Shown here: positions 1,414 to 54,709 of the stretch, piece after piece
How positions within the stretch are numbered: the first letter of the stretch is position 1
How the letters are laid out: the number at the start of each line of letters is the position of its first letter
Source: Elusimicrobiaceae bacterium
Lineage (GTDB): Bacteria; Elusimicrobiota; Elusimicrobia; Elusimicrobiales; Elusimicrobiaceae
Assembly: GCA_045606805.1 (NCBI GenBank)
Contig: JAZUSP010000047.1
Coordinates: 5,087-69,086 of the forward strand
Length of the DNA stretch: 64,000 nucleotides
Reading direction: 5' to 3'
Position numbers and translations under genes: made by a program
Notes under the pieces: model-generated
Seen by the model: only the letters and a program-made list of their open reading frames with translations
Told to the model about the DNA's origin: nothing
The model's database searches: none

Positions 1414-1709
1414 CCGTTTGCGCAAGCAAGTGGGGGAACTTTGATAGCCCAGTAACTGTAATAACCCCGTTTTAAGGGGCCCGTACGTTGCGCGCTTTTT
1501 TGCGCCCGTGCGCGCCAAGTAAGTATTTTCTTTACTTACATACTTAGAACGGATAAATGCCGCAGTTGGCTCCGCAGAAGCAGATAGAAATCTTGCCGGC
1601 TCTTTCTTTACTATATCTGTCTTACAGGAACATGATTGCTAGTTAGCCCTACTACTTACTATCTAGTTAAATGCCTAGGGATACGGGTGCGCCCGCGCGG
1701 GCCCCGCAT

Positions 1710-1933
1710 TTTCCCCAGCACCGGGAAAAACTGACAGTAAGCCGATTAAAAGAGCACCGCTGTAAACGCAAGTGAACTCCTGTTTCCCCACGCACCGGAC
1801 AAAACTGACAGTAAGCTGATTAAAAGAGCACCGGTGTAAACGCAAGGGAACTCCTGTTTCCCCACGCACCGGACAAAACTGACAGTAGGCTGATTAAAAG
1901 AGCACCGCTGTAAACGCAAGTGAACTCCTGTTT
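1710..1933. repeat. Three tandem copies of a 74-bp unit
   Basis: CTGACAGTA recurs at 1731, 1805 and 1879 (period 74); the copies differ at only a few positions. Confidence 0.95.
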
Positions 1934-6518: not shown

Positions 6519-7175
6519 TTAATCTACTGCTACTATATTATCACTCCAAGGGGAAGGAAGTGTCTTACAAAAAGCCTCTCCTTCTGGACTAAAATAGTCA
6601 CACTCATAGGACACTGAACCGCTAGCATTGATTCCAAATTGTAATGCCATGGATGGTAAATGTTCTCTGGCAATACTTTGTGCCATACACTTTCTAGTAT
6701 CACATCGGGCTGCATATTCCCAATACTTGGTAAAGCAAGAAGCATCCTGTTCTCTTAGACAAGATATGTTCATATCAAGAACGTCAGATTTTACTTCTCC
6801 CGTGAATGAAATACGGTCGTCCTCATTGGCAGGAATGCCGTTACGCAATATATATAAATGCATGGCTTTTTTAAAAGAATCCAGTGTGGTAATGGCCTCA
6901 ACTGCCCGTGTCTTTAGTACAGCTTTTTGGTATTGTGGCACGGCCACAGCGGCCAAAATACCGATAATGAGCACGACGACCAAGAGTTCAATGAGCGTAA
7001 AGCCGTGGGTCGTTGTCAATAAAGGTGTCATCCCCGAGGATTGTAATCGGGGATCTTCCACGCATTTATTAAATAAGGCTTGTTCCCTTTTGTTACAACG
7101 ACAAGCGTTGTAGATTCCCAACAGAGACTCTTGGGAATGACAGACTTTTTTACAAACGTCTTTTTGGTTTTTCAT
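6519..7175 (-). CDS. Type IV pilin-like protein 1 (PilE/PilA-like) with extended leader
   Basis: G|[25 protein letters not shown]-methylation motif after a 58-aa leader; Cys pairs in the C-terminal domain. Confidence 0.92.
   Translation of the reverse strand: MKNQKDVCKKVCHSQESLLGIYNACRCNKREQALFNKCVEDPRLQSSGMTPLLTTTHGFTLIELLVVVLIIGILAAVAVPQYQKAVLKTRAVEAITTLDSFKKAMHLYILRNGIPANEDDRISFTGEVKSDVLDMNISCLREQDASCFTKYWEYAARCDTRKCMAQSIAREHLPSMALQFGINASGSVSYECDYFSPEGEAFCKTLPSPWSDNIVAVD
7027..7141. repeat. GTCATCC-type double-hairpin REP/REPIN-like element inside the pilin 1 leader peptide
   Basis: GTCATCCCCGAG..TCGGGGATCTTCCACGC, then a spacer, then CAAGCGTTGTAGATTCCCAA..TTGGGAATGAC. Confidence 0.85.
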
Positions 7176-7455: not shown

Positions 7456-7572
7456 GGTTGGATTTTAGCAACCTTTTTTAGGGGAAAAGTTTTACGTAAT
7501 GAATATTTACGTCCGCCAAGCATCGGGTAGAATGTTCAAAATAGCGCGGTGCAAACGAAAGGGATGGACGTG

Positions 7573-7696
7573 TTTTCAGATTTGAGGCAGATTCGCACCG
7601 TATGTTGCCCCGCAGCGTACGTCTGCAAGACAACGCGTCAGCGTTGCAGGTACGCAAGGTGGGCAAATCGGTGCGAAGGTGCCCGAATGTGAAAAC
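7573..7696. repeat. ~125-bp palindromic element (GTAC-core family), copy 2
   Basis: Near-identical to 1931-2053, with compensatory changes in the apical stem (AACGCGTCAGCGTT vs AATGCGTCAGCATT). Confidence 0.9.
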
Positions 7697-7711
7697 TGTT
7701 AGTTCGTGGTG

Positions 7712-16437: not shown

Positions 16438-17133
16438 TTAGTAATTGTATCGTATATTTTCTATAGGAGTGCTTTGTTCGGTTTCAGCTTGGCATATTTT
16501 ATGTTGTAGGGTTGTTGTATCGTTTCCATAGGCATAACAAGCTGTTTGTCCGGCATTTTTGTTGTTGTGATTAAGATTAATGAGGTAGCCTATTTGTCTG
16601 TTTCCGGCGGAATCATTTCGGATACAATAAACAGCTGTTTGTTCTTCTCTAATTTCCAAGATACATAATCCCCACGGGTAATAATGGACGCCGTAAATAT
16701 CATTTAACGTGGAAGACGTGGGAGTGGGAACATCTATGTCTAATTTGCTGATATCCGGGGTGTAGCTGTTGTTGGCTAAGTAATATACTTCCTCGGCATT
16801 GGCTAACGTTTTTACGAGGTTTTTAACGGTAGCAAAGCGGCTTTTGAGTACCGCTTTTTGGTACTGCGGCACCGCCACCGTGGCCAATATACCGATAATA
16901 AGTACCACGACTAACAACTCAATAAGAGTGAAAGCGCCGCTATTATATAAAGACGTCATTCCAAACCGGGGCATTGCTGTTGGCCCCGCCCCGTAGTGTC
17001 TTAATACGGGGTCTTGGAATCTTCCACGCATGTTGTTTATTAACGACAACGGCAAGCGTTGAAGATCCTGAATCGAGTTCAGGATGACTTGATTTTTTTG
17101 CGTTTGTCCCCGCCGGGTGTGTTTGTGTGTCAT
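16438..17133 (-). CDS. Type IV pilin-like protein 2 with repeat-derived leader
   Basis: A|[24 protein letters not shown] after a 67-aa leader. Confidence 0.92.
   Translation of the reverse strand: MTHKHTRRGQTQKNQVILNSIQDLQRLPLSLINNMRGRFQDPVLRHYGAGPTAMPRFGMTSLYNSGAFTLIELLVVVLIIGILATVAVPQYQKAVLKSRFATVKNLVKTLANAEEVYYLANNSYTPDISKLDIDVPTPTSSTLNDIYGVHYYPWGLCILEIREEQTAVYCIRNDSAGNRQIGYLINLNHNNKNAGQTACYAYGNDTTTLQHKICQAETEQSTPIENIRYNY
16955..17088. repeat. GTCATCC-type double-hairpin element with nested CCCCG..CGGGG insert, in the pilin 2 leader peptide
   Basis: GTCATTCCAAAC-[CGGGGCATT..CCCCGTAGTGTCTTAATACGGGGTC]-TTGGAATCTTCCACGC..GAAGATCCTGAATCGAGTTCAGGATGAC. Confidence 0.88.
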
Positions 17134-21233: not shown

Positions 21234-21989
21234 CTAATAGGGCATTGTATAAGCGCGTAGCGTTGAATAATTTGTGTCTGTTTGGAGGGGTGCACCAAAA
21301 AGTTGGGTGCAATAACTACCCGGCGTTTTTTGATAAACAAAACCGTTAGAATTGGTCCTTTCTGCACAGATAATTTTGGGTTCTCTCATATCTACAAAGA
21401 AACCGGCCCCGGCATAAGTACCGGAAATGCGCCCTAATTTTATAAAATGCCCATCCATTTGCAGGGCCCAATCTTGGTTAGAACGTACTACAGTTGACGT
21501 AGCATAGGTATCCCATAAAGTGTTTCCCGTCCAGGCGGTTAGGTCAATATCCAGTTCTTCAAAAGTGGTTGCGTATTTTCCATTAGCTAAGTAATAGGCG
21601 GCCTGGGCTTGAACCATTGATTTTAGCAACGGTAATACTTGGGCGGCTTTGCTCTTTTCGACGGCTTTTTGATATTGCGGCACAGCCACTGCCGCCAAAA
21701 TACCAATGATGAGGACAACGACTAACAGCTCAATAAGCGTGAATGCGGCAAGATGCCCCTTAGCCGGGGCATTGTCAGAGCCCGCCCCGCAGGGTTGTAG
21801 TGCGGGGCTAGCCTGACCTACCCGTTTAATAAGGGTAAAACCGCCGTTGTTAAATAAAGACGTCATTCCAAACCTGATTTGGAATCTTCCACGCGTGCTG
21901 TTAATCCACGACAACGACAAGCGTTGTAGATCCTGAATCAAGTTCAGGATGACTTTATTTTGTACAACTAACTTTTTGTTTTGCATCAT
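21234..21989 (-). CDS. Type IV pilin-like protein 3 with doubly extended leader
   Basis: Two FTLI motifs 32 aa apart; the second continues as [20 protein letters not shown]. Confidence 0.9.
21862..21953. repeat. GTCATCC-type double-hairpin element in the pilin 3 leader peptide
   Basis: GTCATTCCAAACCTGATTTGGAATCTTCCACGC..GTAGATCCTGAATCAAGTTCAGGATGAC. Confidence 0.88.
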
Positions 21990-22568: not shown

Positions 22569-23624
22569 ATGAAAAACAATAAACGGGGTTTTACCCTGAT
22601 TGAACTGTTGGTAGTAGTGCTTATCATTGGTATATTGGCGGCGGTAGCGGTGCCGCAGTATAAAAGAGCGGTAGAAAAAAGCCGCTTTAGTGCGTTAATT
22701 CCGGTAGCTAAAGGGGTGGCAACGGGGAACGAAAGTTATTATTTGGAGTCAAACACGTATGCAAATGATATCAAGTATTTAAGTGTAGATGCCAATGCAC
22801 AAGGAATAGAAATAAGTGTGGTAAATGATGACTCAAACGGGCTTAGTTATGTAAAAGCATATAATGAAACCGAATTACCAAATCATGACTATGTTGTCTT
22901 TCAAGAACACAGTGGAAATTTTGGAGGAGTTACGATGTGTGAAGCGGCGGATGAAGAAGCCGGAAAACTGTGCGAAGCGATGGGAGGGAGTATTTTGGAC
23001 GGAGCCGTAACTAGCGGGTGGATTGCGTATGCTTTAAGCGGCGATACGGCCGGAAGCAGTTTCCCCAGTGCGGGTGGTTTTAATTTGGGTGATTTTGACC
23101 AAGCTGCCCTAAATGAGGTATTGGCGGGGTTACCTACTGGAAGCACTTATTCTTATAACTTTGACATATGTGAAGCAATGGACTCGGCGACTAGTTGCGC
23201 CAAATCTACATTTAAGAAAATGGGATATTGTAGGGCGGGGCGACAATATAGTTGTGCAGGTTCTACCTTTAGCAATGGTGGTACATGTACTACCTTCTCT
23301 AATTTAGACGCAGAATATGCGTGTGCGGGTTCTACCTTTGGAGCTAGCGCAAAATGTCAAGGATATAATGCATATGGTTGTGCAGGAAGTACCTTTAGCG
23401 GATATAATAGTTACTGCCAGGGGGGAGCTGCGTACGGATGTGTGGGCTCTACCTTTAGCGGAGAGAATAGTTACTGCCGGGGAGATGTGGAGGACGGATG
23501 TACAGGTACAACCATTCAATCTGGGGCATATTGTACGGGGCAAGGGTGTGCAAACGCCGCGTATGAAGGAACCGGATGTTGCAAAGGAGATTATTGCGGC
23601 AGTGCGCCGAAATGTGCCTCTTAA
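22569..23624 (+). CDS. Type IV pilin-like protein 4 with Cys/Gly-rich repeat C-terminus
   Basis: MKNNKRG|FTLIELL short leader; repeated CxGSTF..YC units in the last ~140 aa. Confidence 0.9.
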   Translation: MKNNKRGFTLIELLVVVLIIGILAAVAVPQYKRAVEKSRFSALIPVAKGVATGNESYYLESNTYANDIKYLSVDANAQGIEISVVNDDSNGLSYVKAYNETELPNHDYVVFQEHSGNFGGVTMCEAADEEAGKLCEAMGGSILDGAVTSGWIAYALSGDTAGSSFPSAGGFNLGDFDQAALNEVLAGLPTGSTYSYNFDICEAMDSATSCAKSTFKKMGYCRAGRQYSCAGSTFSNGGTCTTFSNLDAEYACAGSTFGASAKCQGYNAYGCAGSTFSGYNSYCQGGAAYGCVGSTFSGENSYCRGDVEDGCTGTTIQSGAYCTGQGCANAAYEGTGCCKGDYCGSAPKCAS

Positions 23625-23649
23625 TTTGTATCAAAAAATCTGATTAAAC

Positions 23650-23683
23650 AAAGAGCCCCGGCAATATAGCGGGGCTCTTTTTT
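23650..23683. terminator. Bidirectional terminator between pilin 4 and hydF
   Basis: AAAGAGCCCCG..CGGGGCTCTTTTTT. Confidence 0.8.
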
Positions 23684-24858
23684 CATCTTCCTTTTTTTCT
23701 AAAAATCTCCGTCACGCGCTCAAAAATGCCATTGCACCACGCAATCGTGAGGCCGTAGTTGCTTACGGGGACGCCGGCCTCTTTTAACACCGTTAGGCGG
23801 CGCAAAATTTGCGTGCGCGTTACCATGCATCCGCCGCACTGGATAGCCAATTTAAAGGGACTTAAGTTTTCAGGCAGCGGGTCCAAATTATTGACGGTCG
23901 TAAAAAAGAGTTGTTTGCCGGTAAATTCTTGCAGCCAGCGCGGGATTTTCACGCGGCCGATGTCGTCGCATTTATTTACGGTATGCGTGCAGGACTCCAG
24001 CACCAAAATGTGGTCGCCGTCTTGCAGTTTATCAATGGCGGGTGTGCCTTTTAAGTAGGCGTCAAAATCGCCTTTAAGGCGCGAAAATAAAATGCTAAAG
24101 CTCGTCAGCGGGATATGCGCGGGCACGACGGAGCTAACATATTTAAACACTTGCGAATCGGTCACCACCAGCTTAGGCGTGTGGTTGGCCATGTAACCCC
24201 GCAGTTCGGTATCCTTGACGCACACGGCCGTGGCACCGATATCCAGCAAATTGCGAATCGTCTGCACTTGCGGTAAAATAAGCCGCCCTTGCGGGGCCGA
24301 ACTGTCCACGGGAATAACTAAAACAATCTCATCTCCGGCGCGCACGTAATCGTCCAAAATCACGTCGGGCGCGTAGGAACTTTTGGGCAGGTGCTCACGG
24401 ATGGTACGCAACAATAAATCCACGTTCGGTTTTTTGCACGTAAACGCAACGACGTCCGCGCCTTTAATTTCCACATTAGTGGTAGGCAAATCGGTCTTGT
24501 TCTGCACGAAGAAAAACGGCACTTTGCGTGCTTTGCACGTTTCCATTAACGTTTGGTCGTACGCGTCAAAATTTCCGGCAAATACGAGGACCGCCAAATC
24601 CACTTGGTCCAGCGCGTCATTGGTGCGCGCGACGCGTTGCTGCCCCAGGTTGCTGGGGTCGTCCACGCCGGCGGTGTCAATGAGTTCCACCGGCCCGATA
24701 CCGACGAGTTCAATGACTTTTTTAACCGGGTCCGTAGTGGTGCCGGGTTCGTCCGCCACAACGGAAACCTGCTGGCCTGTTAAGGCGTTGACGAGGGAGC
24801 TTTTCCCCACGTTCATTTTGCCAAAAAATCCAATCCGGGGTTTATTGAGTTGTACCAT
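23683..24858 (-). CDS. hydF: [FeFe]-hydrogenase maturation GTPase HydF
   Basis: GKMNVGKSS, GTTTDPV, DTAG, PQGRLILPQVQT, ESCTH..DDIGRVKIP and CGGCM motifs. Confidence 0.88.
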   Translation of the reverse strand: MVQLNKPRIGFFGKMNVGKSSLVNALTGQQVSVVADEPGTTTDPVKKVIELVGIGPVELIDTAGVDDPSNLGQQRVARTNDALDQVDLAVLVFAGNFDAYDQTLMETCKARKVPFFFVQNKTDLPTTNVEIKGADVVAFTCKKPNVDLLLRTIREHLPKSSYAPDVILDDYVRAGDEIVLVIPVDSSAPQGRLILPQVQTIRNLLDIGATAVCVKDTELRGYMANHTPKLVVTDSQVFKYVSSVVPAHIPLTSFSILFSRLKGDFDAYLKGTPAIDKLQDGDHILVLESCTHTVNKCDDIGRVKIPRWLQEFTGKQLFFTTVNNLDPLPENLSPFKLAIQCGGCMVTRTQILRRLTVLKEAGVPVSNYGLTIAWCNGIFERVTEIFRKKGR

Positions 24859-28432: not shown

Positions 28433-29137
28433 CTAAACCATCCGGTAGAGAAACTGTGAAAATAATTTTTGACAATAATCACCCGGTTGCTTAGAAAATA
28501 GAATTTTACTATTATTAAACCGTTCCATACACATCAATTGTTTTGCGGGATAGGAAGGTGTGGTGCTATTAAGTAAATATACAAAACCCGCTCCGGCATA
28601 AGGTCCGGAGATGCGCCCTATGGCAAGACCCTTTCCAACGGCTTGGTCATAAAATTCTAAACTCCAGTCTTTATTGGATATAGCGCCTGCGGTGTTTAGC
28701 CAACTTTCATGTTTATTCCAAGACATATTTACATCCAAATCTGCAAAAGAATTTGCGTATGTTCCATTTGCCAAATAGTAGGCTTCCTGTGCGGCTGCTA
28801 TGGACCGAATGATTGCAAATGCTTGGGTAGCTTTGCTTTTTTCTACTGCTTTTTGGTATTGTGGAACGGCCACGGCCGCCAATATACCAATGATAAGAAC
28901 AACGACTAGTAGTTCAATGAGAGTAAAGGCCGTGTTGGTATATAAATTTGTCATTCCAAACCGGGGTATTACCGTTGGCCCCGCCCCGTAGTGTCTTAAT
29001 ACGGGGTCTTGGAATCTTCCACGCAGGTCGTTTCGTAACGAAAACAGCAAGCGTTGAAGATCCTGAGTCAAGCTCAGGATGACTTTATTGTTTACAGTCG
29101 GTTGCGTGAAACCCCACCGGGTGTATAGCTGATTCAT
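28433..29137 (-). CDS. Type IV pilin-like protein 5 with repeat-derived leader
   Basis: A|[24 protein letters not shown] after a 70-aa leader. Confidence 0.9.
   Translation of the reverse strand: MNQLYTRWGFTQPTVNNKVILSLTQDLQRLLFSLRNDLRGRFQDPVLRHYGAGPTVIPRFGMTNLYTNTAFTLIELLVVVLIIGILAAVAVPQYQKAVEKSKATQAFAIIRSIAAAQEAYYLANGTYANSFADLDVNMSWNKHESWLNTAGAISNKDWSLEFYDQAVGKGLAIGRISGPYAGAGFVYLLNSTTPSYPAKQLMCMERFNNSKILFSKQPGDYCQKLFSQFLYRMV
28950..29083. repeat. GTCATCC-type double-hairpin element with nested insert, in the pilin 5 leader peptide
   Basis: Same layout as 16955-17088, including CCCCGTAGTGTCTTAATACGGGG. Confidence 0.88.
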
Positions 29138-44009: not shown

Positions 44010-44585
44010 ATGACAAACTTGAGCGCGCAAAATGATGATGAGTTGATACAAACTTTTGTTTCCGGGCAGCCGCAGGCTTTTGAAGAGCTGGTATTGCGTT
44101 ACAAAAACAGTTTGTACCAATATATTATGAGCCTGGTGCACGATGAAGGAGCCGCCGGGGATTTATTCCAGGACGTGTTTTTGGCCCTTTATAAGCACGC
44201 GGCGGACTTTAAGGCTCAGGGCAAAGTGAAAGCGTGGCTGTTTTTAACGGCGCGCAACAAAACGCTCAATTATTTTCGGGACCGCAAAGAACACATTTCT
44301 TTGGACGAACCCGACGAAGAAGGAAACGAATTTTGGCACGAAGTATTGCCGGACGGCGAGGCAGACCACCTGGAGCAGTTAACCAGCCGGGAAGGGTTAG
44401 AAAGGCTCAAAAAAGCCATTGACAGTTTGCCCCCCCGCCAAAAGGAAGCGATTTATTTGCGGCAGTATTTATCGTTTGCGGAAATGGCGCAAGTGCAACA
44501 CCGTCCGTTGGGTACGGTACTGGCCGATTGTCACCGCGCAGTGGCGAAAGTGCGCCACTTATTAGCAAGTGAGGAGTTTTTATGA
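44010..44585 (+). CDS. ECF RNA polymerase sigma factor
   Basis: Region 2 (AGDLFQDVFL, KAWLFLTARNKTLNYFR) and region 4 (LPPRQKEAIYLR..SFAEMA..GTV). Confidence 0.92.
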   Translation: MTNLSAQNDDELIQTFVSGQPQAFEELVLRYKNSLYQYIMSLVHDEGAAGDLFQDVFLALYKHAADFKAQGKVKAWLFLTARNKTLNYFRDRKEHISLDEPDEEGNEFWHEVLPDGEADHLEQLTSREGLERLKKAIDSLPPRQKEAIYLRQYLSFAEMAQVQHRPLGTVLADCHRAVAKVRHLLASEEFL

Positions 44586-44887
44586 AACGCGAAATGTTTG
44601 AAGATGTCATTAGCCAAGCTCTAGCCGCCCCGGCCGCTCCGGCCGAGTTGGTGGATAAAGTATTTGCCAAAACTACGCGCCGCCAAAGCTGGTTTGCCCG
44701 CTATAAAATGGCGTTAGTCGGCGGGGTAGCGGCAGTAGTAGTGGGGGTGTGCGTGGGCGTGGGGCATTATGTGCATACAACGCCGTCGTACGATAAGGCC
44801 CAACTGGTGGTATATATGAGCCAAACAGCGCAAGACGAATATGCCACTTTTTTAAGTGATTTGGAGTTGTTTGAACAAGAATTCTAG
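44582..44887 (+). CDS. Putative membrane anti-sigma factor
   Basis: Overlaps the sigma gene stop; single TM helix. Confidence 0.7.
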   Translation: MKREMFEDVISQALAAPAAPAELVDKVFAKTTRRQSWFARYKMALVGGVAAVVVGVCVGVGHYVHTTPSYDKAQLVVYMSQTAQDEYATFLSDLELFEQEF

Positions 44888-45590: not shown

Positions 45591-46070
45591 TTATAAAGGG
45601 ACCCAACAAGTACGTGCATTATTACAGCTTGTGTTTAGTAACGATAAACATAGCTTTTTCTTATATGTATTGCCTCCATACCAACATATTACGTGATCTT
45701 GGTCATAATATTTTTCTAAGGTGGGAAGTTGGCCTTTTATATCTTCAATTTTTGTACTGTTATGGATTCCGCCTTCACGGTATAACTTATATTGCACGTC
45801 ACTATAAATTACCTGAGTTGCACTTGTATTAGTAGTTCCGGCAGGTAATTCTACATCTAACTTACTAAAATCGTCGGCATGATCTCCGTTTGCCAAATAA
45901 TAGACTTGTTGGGCAGTATCAATGGCTTTAATAACGGGTAGTACCCGCGATAGGCGTGCTTTATCTACAGCTATCTTATATTGCGGCAGGGCCACCGCGG
46001 CCAAAATGCCGATGATTAAAACAACTACTAACAACTCAATGAGGGTAAACCCCCGTTTTTTCCATTCCAT
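45591..46070 (-). CDS. Type IV pilin-like protein 8 (short leader)
   Basis: MEWKKRG|[24 protein letters not shown]; two C-terminal Cys pairs. Confidence 0.93.
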   Translation of the reverse strand: MEWKKRGFTLIELLVVVLIIGILAAVALPQYKIAVDKARLSRVLPVIKAIDTAQQVYYLANGDHADDFSKLDVELPAGTTNTSATQVIYSDVQYKLYREGGIHNSTKIEDIKGQLPTLEKYYDQDHVICWYGGNTYKKKLCLSLLNTSCNNARTCWVPL

Positions 46071-46356
46071 AAACATGCTCCTAATTTTTTAATTTCAATT
46101 TTCTTCTGTTTATGAAACGTAATAAAAACGACTGGACATAAACCAGGTCTCTACACAGACACCCATTCACACCAGTCGTGGCCTTTTGTCATAGACAAAA
46201 AACACTCAGCACTAAACAACAGGCTCATGACTTCCTGTCATCTAGTGCTTAAAAACGACTGTTCTTGACTGTGTAGAGAGTTCCTAACGGAACTGTCCCG
46301 TATTCCACATACGGTTCAAAAACAGATTAAATTGTACCTACAGTATAATAAAAAAG
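46071..46356 (-). ncRNA. Conserved structured 5' leader of pilin cassette, copy L8
   Basis: TATACT -10; stems CUCUACACAG/CUGUGUAGAG, CAGUCGU/ACGACUG, AGCACUA/UAGUGCU, GAGUGUUU, downstream CAGUCGUUUU. Confidence 0.8.
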
Positions 46357-46396
46357 CACGCATTTTTCAATGCGTGCTTAAAGAGAATGCGGCGTT

Positions 46397-46717: not shown

Positions 46718-46798
46718 GTGAATACTCCTTTATGTAAAATAACACTTATATTTTACAATTTCTATTTTAACCGTGCAAAGAATTGCTACAATAAAGGT

Positions 46799-47530
46799 AT
46801 GACAGAACTGCAAACTTTTATTTCTTGGCTCAAAAACGCACGCTATGCCACCGCGTTTACGGGGGCGGGTGTGAGCGTGGAAAGCGGCATTGCGCCGTTT
46901 ACCGGGGCGGGCGGACTTTGGAATCAGTACGACCCTCAGTTTATTGAAATCAATTTTTTCCTTTCCAATCCTACGCGCAGTTGGGAGGAAATGAAAAAGA
47001 TTTTCTTTACCGATATGGACGAAGCAAAACCCAACAAAGCTCACCAGGTGCTTGCCGCGCTGGAAACGCAAGGCTTACTAAAAGGTATTATCACGCAAAA
47101 CATTGACGGTTTGCACCAACGCGCGGGCAGTAAAAACGTGGCCGAATTTCACGGCACCATTCACACGCTCTCGTGTTTGTCGTGCGGGCGCAAATACCGC
47201 TTAGAAGACGTAAATTTAGACGACGTTCCCCCCGCCTGTATGTGCGGCCACGTCTTAAAACCCGATTTTGTTTTTTATGGCGAGGGCATCCCCCCGCGCG
47301 CCTACGAACACGCCGCCCAACTGTCGCAAGACACGGATTTAATGATTATTATCGGCACAGCGGGCCAGGTAATGCCGGCGTGCAGTTTGCCTTATGCGGC
47401 CAAAGAACACGGTGCCAAAATTGTGGAGATTAACCCGCAACCCTCAGCTTATACCGGGCAACTGACGGACTTATATTTCCCGTATAAAGCGGGCGAATTG
47501 TTTGCCCAGTTTGAAAAAGAGTTCCAATAA
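46799..47530 (+). CDS. cobB: NAD-dependent deacylase (sirtuin)
   Basis: FTGAGVSVESGI, TQNIDGLH, HG, CxxC..CxC zinc motif, KPDFVFYGE and IIIGT motifs. Confidence 0.95.
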   Translation: MTELQTFISWLKNARYATAFTGAGVSVESGIAPFTGAGGLWNQYDPQFIEINFFLSNPTRSWEEMKKIFFTDMDEAKPNKAHQVLAALETQGLLKGIITQNIDGLHQRAGSKNVAEFHGTIHTLSCLSCGRKYRLEDVNLDDVPPACMCGHVLKPDFVFYGEGIPPRAYEHAAQLSQDTDLMIIIGTAGQVMPACSLPYAAKEHGAKIVEINPQPSAYTGQLTDLYFPYKAGELFAQFEKEFQ

Positions 47531-54091: not shown

Positions 54092-54709
54092 TTATTGTTC
54101 GCTATAACTAGAGGGCATATCGTAGTATGTCCAACCGTTTGGATTCTCTTTTGGATTTCCATCACTTAATGTGGCGCAGACTTTATTTTCTAAGTATTTT
54201 GTTGTTATTGCTTGGCATAGGTAGCGATTTGTTAAAGGATAAAAACTTAAGCGAAGAGATGAATTTAGCGTATAACTTATTTTTTTAAAATCTTCTTCAA
54301 ATATGTATTTATCTTTATTCGGGATATCAATATCAAGTCCTTCCCAAGAATATATATATTCTCCATTGGCTAGGTAATAGGATTGTTGTGCTTTGCGCCA
54401 AGCGTCCAAACCGACTAGCCCTTCCATGGCGCGGGATTTTAGAACTGCCACTTGATATTGCGGTACGGCCACGGCGGTTAAAATACCAATAATAAGCACG
54501 ACGACTAAAAGCTCGATGAGGGTAAAGCCCTTTCTTCCTCCCTTGCGGAGGAAGTGGTCCGCAGGACCGATGGAGGGGCTCATTAAGGAGAATGCCTTAT
54601 AGGCCCCCCTTTTTGTCGCTACCGCGACCCCCGACAAAAGCCCTCGGGGGCAGGCTCTTTCCCCGCAAGGGGGACAAGAAACGACATTTACATTTTTGTT
54701 GTTTTTCAT
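54092..54709 (-). CDS. Type IV pilin-like protein 9 with repeat-derived leader
   Basis: G|[24 protein letters not shown] after a 61-aa leader. Confidence 0.92.
   Translation of the reverse strand: MKNNKNVNVVSCPPCGERACPRGLLSGVAVATKRGAYKAFSLMSPSIGPADHFLRKGGRKGFTLIELLVVVLIIGILTAVAVPQYQVAVLKSRAMEGLVGLDAWRKAQQSYYLANGEYIYSWEGLDIDIPNKDKYIFEEDFKKISYTLNSSLRLSFYPLTNRYLCQAITTKYLENKVCATLSDGNPKENPNGWTYYDMPSSYSEQ
54534..54680. repeat. CCCC(T/G)CAAGGGG-type palindromic element in the pilin 9 leader peptide
   Basis: TTCCTCCCTTGCGGAGGAAG, GGTCCGCAGGACC and CCCCGCAAGGGG hairpins; related to 33311-33359. Confidence 0.72.

Follow-up and report, generated by a model that had tools for sequence, protein, structure and literature searches.

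The stretch of DNA considered here is a window of 64,000 nucleotides (nt) from contig JAZUSP010000047.1 of an Elusimicrobiaceae bacterium (assembly GCA_045606805.1), and it contains eight paralogous leaders of ~260 nt, all on the minus strand and each preceding a gene for a type IV pilin-like protein. Below we name each leader copy by the position of its 5' end. In copy 46336 the region under study (46120-46265, minus strand) is situated between a promoter-like site and an open reading frame (ORF) of 161 amino acids (aa) at 45591..46076, and its elements are listed in Table 1. As set out below, it is very probable that this region is the expression platform of a cis-acting leader RNA of ~260 nt, which controls the type IV pilin gene by means of transcription attenuation.

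The promoter-like arrangement TTGnnA-N17-TATACT is found again upstream of many homologous leaders, and from this site we infer that transcription of the leader starts at ACAAUUU. Our first reading took TACAAT as the -10 element and was dropped, since TATACT with TTGnnA 17 nt upstream fits better; with TATACT in this role ACAAUUU would be the 5' end of the RNA, where it could pair with AAAUUG ahead of the Shine-Dalgarno (SD) sequence. A sigma-54 promoter in the seg1/H1 region (Table 1) was judged by eye and set aside, there being no TTGC at the right spacing.

Homologous leaders and the genes they precede

A genome collection was scanned with a pattern comprised only of the 5' segment and the P3/P4 junction, the segments under test being excluded, and 116 loci were recovered. 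A profile hidden Markov model built from the eight window copies then gave 120 distinct leaders in the window and these 116 loci, drawn from 38 assemblies (37 of the genome collection and the window itself). The assemblies with leaders are nearly all labelled Elusimicrobiaceae or Elusimicrobiales, and come from gut and rumen. A scan of metagenomes with a pattern that lacked the 5' segment added 109 further distinct leaders. Two alignments were used: A2, a structure-blind MAFFT alignment with 119 distinct rows, and A3, which covers the segment between and including the two strands of P1.

Among the 107 leaders with enough downstream sequence, 90 are followed by a pilin-like ORF with the G/A-FTLIELL motif. 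A few precede other envelope genes, such as those for a zinc-ribbon membrane protein (L048:1403-1876, minus strand) and an outer-membrane beta-barrel protein (L020:5207-5899, plus strand), and this minority of loci indicates that the regulon is not strictly one of pilins. Conversely, the window has a ninth pilin-like gene (22569-23624, plus strand, 351 aa) with no leader copy upstream; hence control by the leader is not common to all pilin paralogs. At least 22 copies of the leader are present in one assembly, and its occurrence before dozens of type IV pilin genes suggests that these genes probably share one riboswitch-like on/off control.

Table 1. Positions of the leader elements in copy 46336, of the eight leader copies and of repeats in the pilin extensions (window coordinates)
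Feature	Position	Strand	Remarks
Promoter-like site	46342..46370	-	-35 TTGAAA 46370-46365, 17-nt spacer, -10 TATACT 46347-46342; 10/12 matches
5'-terminal strand ACAAUUUAAUCUGUUUUUGAACCGU	46311..46335	-	includes seg1
seg1 CUGUUUUUGA	46325-46316	-	can pair with seg2 or seg5
Hairpin H1, CCGUAU-GUGGA-AUACGG	46298..46314	-	
Hairpin H2, GUUCC-GUUA-GGAAC	46280..46293	-	
P1 5' strand CUCUACACAG	46269..46278	-	all 9 P1 pairs covary
seg2 and P2 5' strand	46255..46268	-	seg2 UCAAGAACAG (46268-46259) overlaps P2 5' strand AACAGUCGU (46263-46255)
P3 hairpin	46208..46249	-	apical-loop palindrome UCAUGA 46230-46225
Conserved junction and P4 hairpin	46181..46207	-	GAGU 46207-46204; P4 46203-46181
P2 3' strand (seg3) ACGACUGGU	46171..46179	-	shared strand of the switch
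Terminator hairpin	46128..46179	-	52 nt, -25.7 kcal/mol, z -6.3; 5' arm made up of the P2 3' strand and the region joining P2 to P1
P1 3' strand CUGUGUAGAG	46158-46149	-	lies in the loop and top of the terminator
Downstream partner (seg4) CCAGUCGU	46135-46128	-	end of the terminator 3' arm
U tract UUUUU	46123..46127	-	directly after the hairpin
seg5 ACGUUUCAUAAACAGAAGAAAAUUGA	46095..46120	-	complementary to the 5'-terminal strand and to the start-codon region
SD and start region	46063..46082	-	SD AGGAG 46082-46078; start codon 46076; start region UGUUUAUGGAAUG pairing with seg5
Type IV pilin-like protein (161 aa)	45591..46076	-	probable regulated gene; N-terminal methylation motif, Pfam N_methyl, E 5.5e-09
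Leader copies, 5' end to ATG	7436-7173, 17388-17131, 22253-21987, 29342-29135, 35128-34862, 41045-40769, 46336-46068, 54971-54707	-	
Repeat families D5, D6, D12	17014-17096, 21879-21961, 29009-29091		in pilin extensions

The terminator hairpin and the fold that competes with it

The leader can be described in terms of five segments that would be of two complementary kinds, namely a CUGUU-type, to which the 5'-terminal seg1 and the P2 3' strand (seg3) belong, and an AACAG-type, represented by the P2 5' strand (seg2), the downstream partner (seg4) and seg5, which lies immediately ahead of the SD. An earlier note on this DNA had claimed that the P2 3' strand can pair either with the P2 5' strand or with a short conserved segment downstream. 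The sequences bear out what it said of these strands: six window copies have ACGGCUG as the P2 3' strand; copy 46336 has ACGACUG (46179-46173) with CAGUCGU both upstream (46261-46255) and downstream (46134-46128); and in copy 17388 GCGGUUG can pair with the downstream CAGCCGU at every position, two of them as G-U. The downstream pairing thus stands, but not the short partner of 6-7 nt, for this segment forms the base of a hairpin of ~19 bp that is followed by a U tract. It also lies further from the gene than the 35-45 nt that had been given, at 44-51 nt before the SD and, in one short copy, at 23 nt.

In each window copy a single long hairpin takes in the whole stretch that starts with the P2 3' strand and ends with the downstream segment, and a run of U comes after it; the U5 tract of copy 46336 identifies its hairpin 46179-46128 as an intrinsic terminator. 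The same stretch closes as one hairpin in 117/120 homologs, with a mean of -22.2 kcal/mol, ~19 bp and a mean z of -5.0 against dinucleotide shuffles, and 108/120 have at least five U among the next 8 nt. In the metagenome leaders the hairpin is closed in all of the 108 folded (mean -23.9 kcal/mol). A stable hairpin with a G+C-rich base, then a U tract, upstream of an ORF is what is expected of an intrinsic terminator, and we infer that the hairpin of copy 46336 would terminate transcription in vivo.

Conservation of this structure was assessed with 19 named pairs on A2. Paired cells amount to 82.2% against 74.0% in shuffles, cells with changes on both sides to 204 against 99, and the covariation score to 0.340 against 0.216 in shuffles and at most 0.139 with the partners slid; none of 500 shuffles reached any of these observed values, though here and below the shuffle and permutation controls do not fully account for the relatedness of the sequences. 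RNAalifold run on A2 recovers only 11 basal pairs of the terminator, because insertions and deletions misalign the middle of the stem, and the folds of individual sequences and the named structure were therefore used. The six basal pairs are near-invariant in the 119 homologs: from the first to the sixth they are AU 96/GU 18/GC 2; CG 119; GC 118/GU 1; GC 117/AU 1/GU 1; CG 111/UG 3/UA 2/unpaired 3; and UA 85/UG 31/AU 1. Yet compensatory changes are found at four positions, comprising A-U to G-C in L013 and L008, G-C to A-U in window copy 46336, C-G to U-A in L041 and L080, and U-A to A-U in L031. The six double-changed paired cells compare with 0.69 expected and the eight unpaired cells with 15.2 expected, neither value being reached in 20000 permutations, which do not correct for relatedness; the compensatory events themselves occur at different positions and in different assemblies. 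Joint substitution of the two segments in homologs, whose absence would have spoken against the alternative pairing proposed in the earlier note, is thus observed.

The second fold is a three-way junction built from P1 (9 bp), a CC/GG pair step and P2 (8 bp), together with P4 and a distally extended P3. On A3, 90.1% of its cells are paired against 71.5% in shuffles, and 1120 cells are changed on both sides against 379; P2 is paired in 96%, with three of its pairs changing on both sides. The P1 strands of the same leader pair at -15.4 kcal/mol against -5.2 kcal/mol for strands of different leaders in the genome set, and cognate and non-cognate strands of the metagenome set at -16.1 and -5.2 kcal/mol. 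The nucleotides at the junction are highly conserved (GUGCCGARUGUUU ... AAACYACGGCUGUU). Three parts of the RNA are claimed by this fold and by the terminator alike, namely the P2 3' strand, the region that joins P2 to P1, and some of the P1 3' strand; the two are therefore mutually exclusive. Both structures are conserved and covary across the 120 homologs, in agreement with the suggestion of the earlier note that mutually exclusive folds point to an attenuator or riboswitch platform. Such an arrangement, with the aptamer-like domain doubling as the antiterminator, is characteristic of ON-type attenuators: an alternative helix is formed on the nucleotides of the terminator and both are kept by selection. 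The conserved aptamer-like domain, with its covarying helices and conserved junction nucleotides, overlaps the expression platform, as is expected of a riboswitch.

A further strand enters this competition from the 5' end of the RNA. When applied to the eight window copies, RNAalifold paired seg1 CUGUUUUUGG with seg2 CCAAAAACAG, a segment overlapping the P2 5' strand. This duplex is paired at every one of its ten positions in at least 110/120 leaders, and its average energy is -12.8 kcal/mol (z -4.35). Even in the set chosen without it seg1 is near-invariant (93/103), and its last position covaries with seg2, with G-C in 200 cases, A-U in 8 (copy 46336 among them), G-U in 4 and no mismatch among the 212 sequences scored, 11 further ones being impossible to score (Fisher p 3.7e-12). 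If the terminator is imposed as a constraint, seg1:seg2 is part of the predicted structure in 117/120 leaders. Another pairing advanced in the earlier note, between the downstream CCGUUUU and the AAACGG arm of the 5' hairpin, is available only in the four copies with a CCGUUU/AAACGG hairpin; copies 41045 and 46336 have the arms CCGUAU/AUACGG with an unchanged downstream segment, and as there is no covariation we treat this pairing as a coincidence.

State energies, here and below, are nearest-neighbour predictions. For transcripts that stop where the terminator ends, the terminator state has the lowest energy of all folds in 99/120 leaders and lies on average 4.0 kcal/mol below the state in which P2 is forced. 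For full-length leaders the ON and OFF states are predicted to be nearly isoenergetic (-96.8 and -97.2 kcal/mol); the full leader of copy 46336 has a minimum free energy of -101.8 kcal/mol (z -8.5). Step-wise folding, a check suggested in the earlier note, gave an order of folds that flips from P1/P2 to the terminator, with 3/8 window copies keeping the P2 state. Specifically, minimum-energy folds of transcripts cut after seg2 contain seg1:seg2 in 118/120; those cut after the P1 3' strand contain P2 in 117/120 and seg1:seg2 in only 2; and those cut after the terminator contain the terminator in 97/120, with seg1:seg2 re-forming in 96. The same three cuts gave 101/101, 101/101 and 91/101 in the metagenome set. 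The antiterminator domain is therefore the favoured fold right up to the point at which the terminator acquires its 3' arm, and the RNA is predicted to flip to the terminator thereafter unless P1/P2 is held by something.

The ~20 nt that come after the U tract (seg5, e.g. GGGUUUCAUAAACAG or GCGUUUUUCCAAAGCAG) can form a long-range hairpin with the SD, the start codon or both. Cognate pairing of seg5 with the SD/AUG is at -11.1 kcal/mol against -7.2 kcal/mol for non-cognate pairing (p 5.5e-20). The loop of this hairpin (46063-46120, minus strand, and equivalents) holds a conserved AAAUUGAAAU. The seg5 region has a second complement in the initial ~26 nt of the RNA (ACAAUUUNAUCUGUUUUUGGAACCG), at -15.6 kcal/mol against -9.0 kcal/mol with shuffled partners (p 5e-36). 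Folds constrained to the ON state contain seg1:seg5 in 49/103 leaders and those constrained to the OFF state contain seg1:seg2 in 90/103; the stretch from SD to AUG has a paired fraction of 0.45 in ON and 0.59 in OFF (p 3e-7). These predictions suggest that seg5 is probably a second lock on translation that is coupled to the switch, the evidence for the coupling being weaker than that for the terminator switch. The full length of the terminator, the 5'-terminal competitor for the P2 5' strand and the helix masking the SD/AUG had all been missed in the earlier note.

Based on these observations we propose the following scheme. In the OFF state seg1 would pair with seg2 and leave seg3 free to form with seg4 the hairpin of ~19-21 bp which, with the U5 tract, would act as the intrinsic terminator; in those transcripts that are read through, seg5 would pair with the SD/AUG. 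In the ON state seg2 would pair with seg3 as P2, and P1 would close the three-way junction P2-P3-P4, thereby occupying the 5' arm and the top of the terminator, while seg1 may then pair with seg5 and the SD/AUG would be open. An effector acting at the conserved three-way junction would hold P1/P2 until RNA polymerase has passed, resulting in an ON-type switch; a small molecule, a protein or RNA dimerisation are the candidates for this role.

Weighing attenuation against its rivals

Several observations do not sit well with this scheme. The predicted ON state of copy 46336 does not pair seg1 with seg5, and seg1:seg5 has almost no two-sided covariation. The P2 state stays the minimum-energy fold after the complete terminator in ~20/120 leaders, including the three window copies mentioned above, and nearest-neighbour state energies take no account of tertiary structure or of the kinetics of folding. 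Some copies have a short or interrupted U tract, e.g. 41045 (UUCUUAU) and 29342 (UUUCUUU). The RNA runs that were searched contained neither the leader nor related sequences, RNA contigs touching it over 36 nt at <90% identity; the best DNA run holds a fraction of 0.23 of the sampled leader words. A simple terminator scan also did not call the leader hairpin, but its stem is long and imperfect and the scan allows neither bulges nor loops >8 nt; given these limits we do not count the miss as evidence against a terminator.

It is possible, though we would stop short of calling it probable, that the leader is a true small-molecule riboswitch, a refinement of the attenuation scheme in which the junction is an aptamer for a metabolite or a second messenger, e.g. 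cyclic di-GMP (c-di-GMP), with the ligand stabilising P1/P2 and permitting read-through. The conserved junction nucleotides are flanked by covarying helices, as would be expected of an aptamer, and the aptamer fold is the minimum-energy one before the 3' arm of the terminator emerges, the terminator being only ~4 kcal/mol stabler afterwards. There is also the precedent of the ON-type c-di-GMP-II riboswitch on pilA1 of C. difficile (PMC6366702). Against this, the alternative pairings already account for a large part of the conservation in the joining regions, riboswitches do not usually reach the copy number of 22 or more that one assembly has, and the leader matches no Rfam riboswitch model at E up to 10. 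More specifically, Rfam 15 gave no match at the gathering threshold in the whole window; the eight leaders had no match at E up to 1, including to c-di-GMP-I/II, T-box and leader families; and at E up to 10 only chance-level matches were obtained, all off the leader element. The weak matches to Trp and Thr leaders among them were rejected, as they are located on the terminator of the upstream gene.

Only tentatively can we entertain a choice of fold that involves no small molecule, being made instead by an antiterminator protein or by dimers of leaders joined through the P3 loop. The many copies per genome suggest one trans-acting factor, and the near-invariance of seg1 (93/103) and H1 exceeds what pairing alone requires, but no candidate protein was identified. 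With respect to dimers, the apical loop of P3 (mostly 7-11 nt) contains a palindrome of at least 6 nt in 80/120 and 81/101 leaders, far above the ~6-7 found in shuffled loops, whereas the loops of P4, H1 and H2 have none. At least 13 different hexamers are represented in the P3 loops, including UAAUUA, UUAUAA, UCAUGA, UUCGAA, UUGCAA, UCUAGA and CUCGAG, besides the tetramer GAUC. Our scoring script divided the eight P3 loops of the window into seven classes, comprising five hexamers, GAUC twice and one copy with no palindrome; the last of these, copy 7436, was scored so although UUGCAA is visible in its sequence. A self-complementary apical loop that is kept through sequence change is the hallmark of elements like the dimerisation initiation site (DIS), and by its sequence the P3 loop looks like a kissing-loop dimerisation site, a class of homodimers that includes the HIV-1 DIS (reviewed in PMC7357161). 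However, P3 forms in both states, so that a link between its loop and the switch is not evident, and the diversity of palindromes within genomes does not exceed that of random draws from the pool; the idea of a greater-than-chance diversity within genomes was accordingly given up. If dimerisation through the self-complementary P3 loops were confirmed, the leaders would be a rare example of a bacterial cis-regulator in which homodimers of RNA are under selection.

An extension of the dimer idea, which we regard as improbable, is that the leaders form a self-recognising RNA network, wherein leaders, terminated or nascent, whose P3 loops have the same palindrome would dimerise, bias the choice between terminator and antiterminator and thus co-switch classes of pilin paralogs. 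If true, it would amount to an RNA-based choice among dozens of pilins, placed atop a new riboswitch-like sensor.

It is unlikely that the leader is a stand-alone small RNA of ~210 nt with a constitutive terminator, in which P1/P2 is transient and the pilin is expressed by leak-through or from another promoter. The terminator state is indeed the thermodynamic minimum in most copies, and the terminated product would be compact and very stable (z -8.5 for the full leader). But P1 covaries at all 9 pairs and is incompatible with the terminator, which implies that selection maintains a second state; moreover, the pairings seg5:SD/AUG and seg1:seg5 tie the leader to the ORF downstream, and in copy 46336 a promoter-like site between the terminator and the ORF was not found. 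Finally, a DNA-level feature, with seg1, seg2 and seg5 as inverted repeats for recombination, inversion or gene conversion among pilin paralogs and the RNA pairings incidental, might be read from the eight leaders in 64 kb and the ~10-bp inverted repeats that seg1 makes with seg2 and seg5, but is very hard to credit. Compensatory changes keep the pairing of P1, P3, P4 and the terminator at 51-63% column identity, which is a signature of the RNA level; only the transcribed strand tolerates G-U pairs; and inverted copies were not noticed, orientation not being tabulated and the 107 leaders evaluated being gene-facing. An invertible DNA switch between seg1 and seg5 is likewise unlikely in light of the RNA-level covariation.

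We accordingly return to attenuation by a cis-acting leader. In the gut and rumen Elusimicrobia with dozens of pilin-like genes, a single conserved leader precedes most of these genes, which suggests that the pilin repertoire as a whole is turned on or off by one common signal. The literature that was consulted, including large surveys for noncoding RNA discovery, describes no leader RNA motif of Elusimicrobia pilins. The ~260-nt leader is an undescribed RNA family specific to Elusimicrobiaceae, with a mechanism of a known kind and a family and multi-strand design that are new, and it represents a new orphan riboswitch or attenuator class with clear testable predictions.

Surroundings of the leaders and comparison with known systems

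The stretch 44010-44887 (plus strand), just upstream of the pilin unit 45591..46076, contains a gene for an extracytoplasmic function (ECF)-type sigma factor (Sigma70_r2/r4) and, overlapping it, a small ORF that may encode an anti-sigma factor; a Sir2-family gene comes next at 46718-47530. In several of the pilin-like ORFs (16438-17133, 6519-7175, 21234-21989, 28433-29137 and 54092-54709, all on the minus strand) the G/A-FTLIELL motif is preceded by a very long N-terminal extension, which is of 66 aa in the first of them. The extensions hold conserved DNA hairpin repeats, e.g. GTCATCCTGAACTCGATTCAGGATC, and may represent either insertions of repeat elements or prepilin leader peptides of an unusual kind. 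Elsewhere, a unit of ~74-77 nt occurs in three head-to-tail copies with 90-91% identity at 1709-1933 (plus strand; repeat family D7), and the related 134-nt repeat D9 is found at 1929-2062 and 7571-7704. A weak match to the Rfam rimP leader at 23633-23710 (minus strand; 30.4 bits against a gathering score of 47, E 0.63) is probably due to chance.

Among known systems the nearest functional precedent is the ON-type c-di-GMP-II riboswitch Cdi-2-4 of Clostridioides difficile, which turns the pilA1 gene on by preventing termination (PMC6366702). Like it, the Elusimicrobia leader is the 5' leader of a type IV pilin gene, and it would likewise form a terminator in the absence of its effector and be read through in the effector-bound fold. 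It is not a member of that family, differing in having no match to RF01786 or to other Rfam models, in a core that is a three-way junction closed by P1/P2, and in possessing an extra 5' competitor strand and a helix masking the SD/AUG. The c-di-GMP-II fold is pseudoknotted. Furthermore, the Elusimicrobia leader is present in at least 22 copies in one assembly rather than in one.

The pbuE (ydhL) adenine riboswitch of Bacillus subtilis is of the ON type, and the 3' side of its aptamer serves as the 5' arm of the terminator, there being no separate antiterminator. The direct competition between aptamer and terminator is alike in the two systems, as is the preference for the aptamer until the 3' arm of the terminator is transcribed. 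However, the Elusimicrobia leader is unrelated in sequence and junction, is longer (~260 nt), and has an upstream strand, seg1, which in the OFF state would go back to pairing with the P2 5' strand.

In this last feature it comes closer to the leader of the E. coli trp operon, the classical attenuator with 1:2, 2:3 and 3:4 pairings. Both have a chain of alternative helices wherein an upstream segment sequesters the 5' strand of the antiterminator and thereby permits the 3:4 terminator. Unlike the trp leader, that of Elusimicrobia has no conserved leader peptide: an ATG ORF preceded by an SD is found in 10/120 leaders, in none of them at a conserved position, and attenuation by means of a leader peptide was rejected on these grounds.

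With respect to the P3 loop, the closest comparison is with the HIV-1 DIS and other kissing-loop homodimers. Common to them is an apical loop of 9-11 nt with a central self-complementary sequence of 6 nt that is flanked by unpaired bases, the hexamer varying while it stays palindromic. The P3 loop differs in belonging to a bacterial cis-regulatory leader and in a dimerisation that is putative and read from the sequence.

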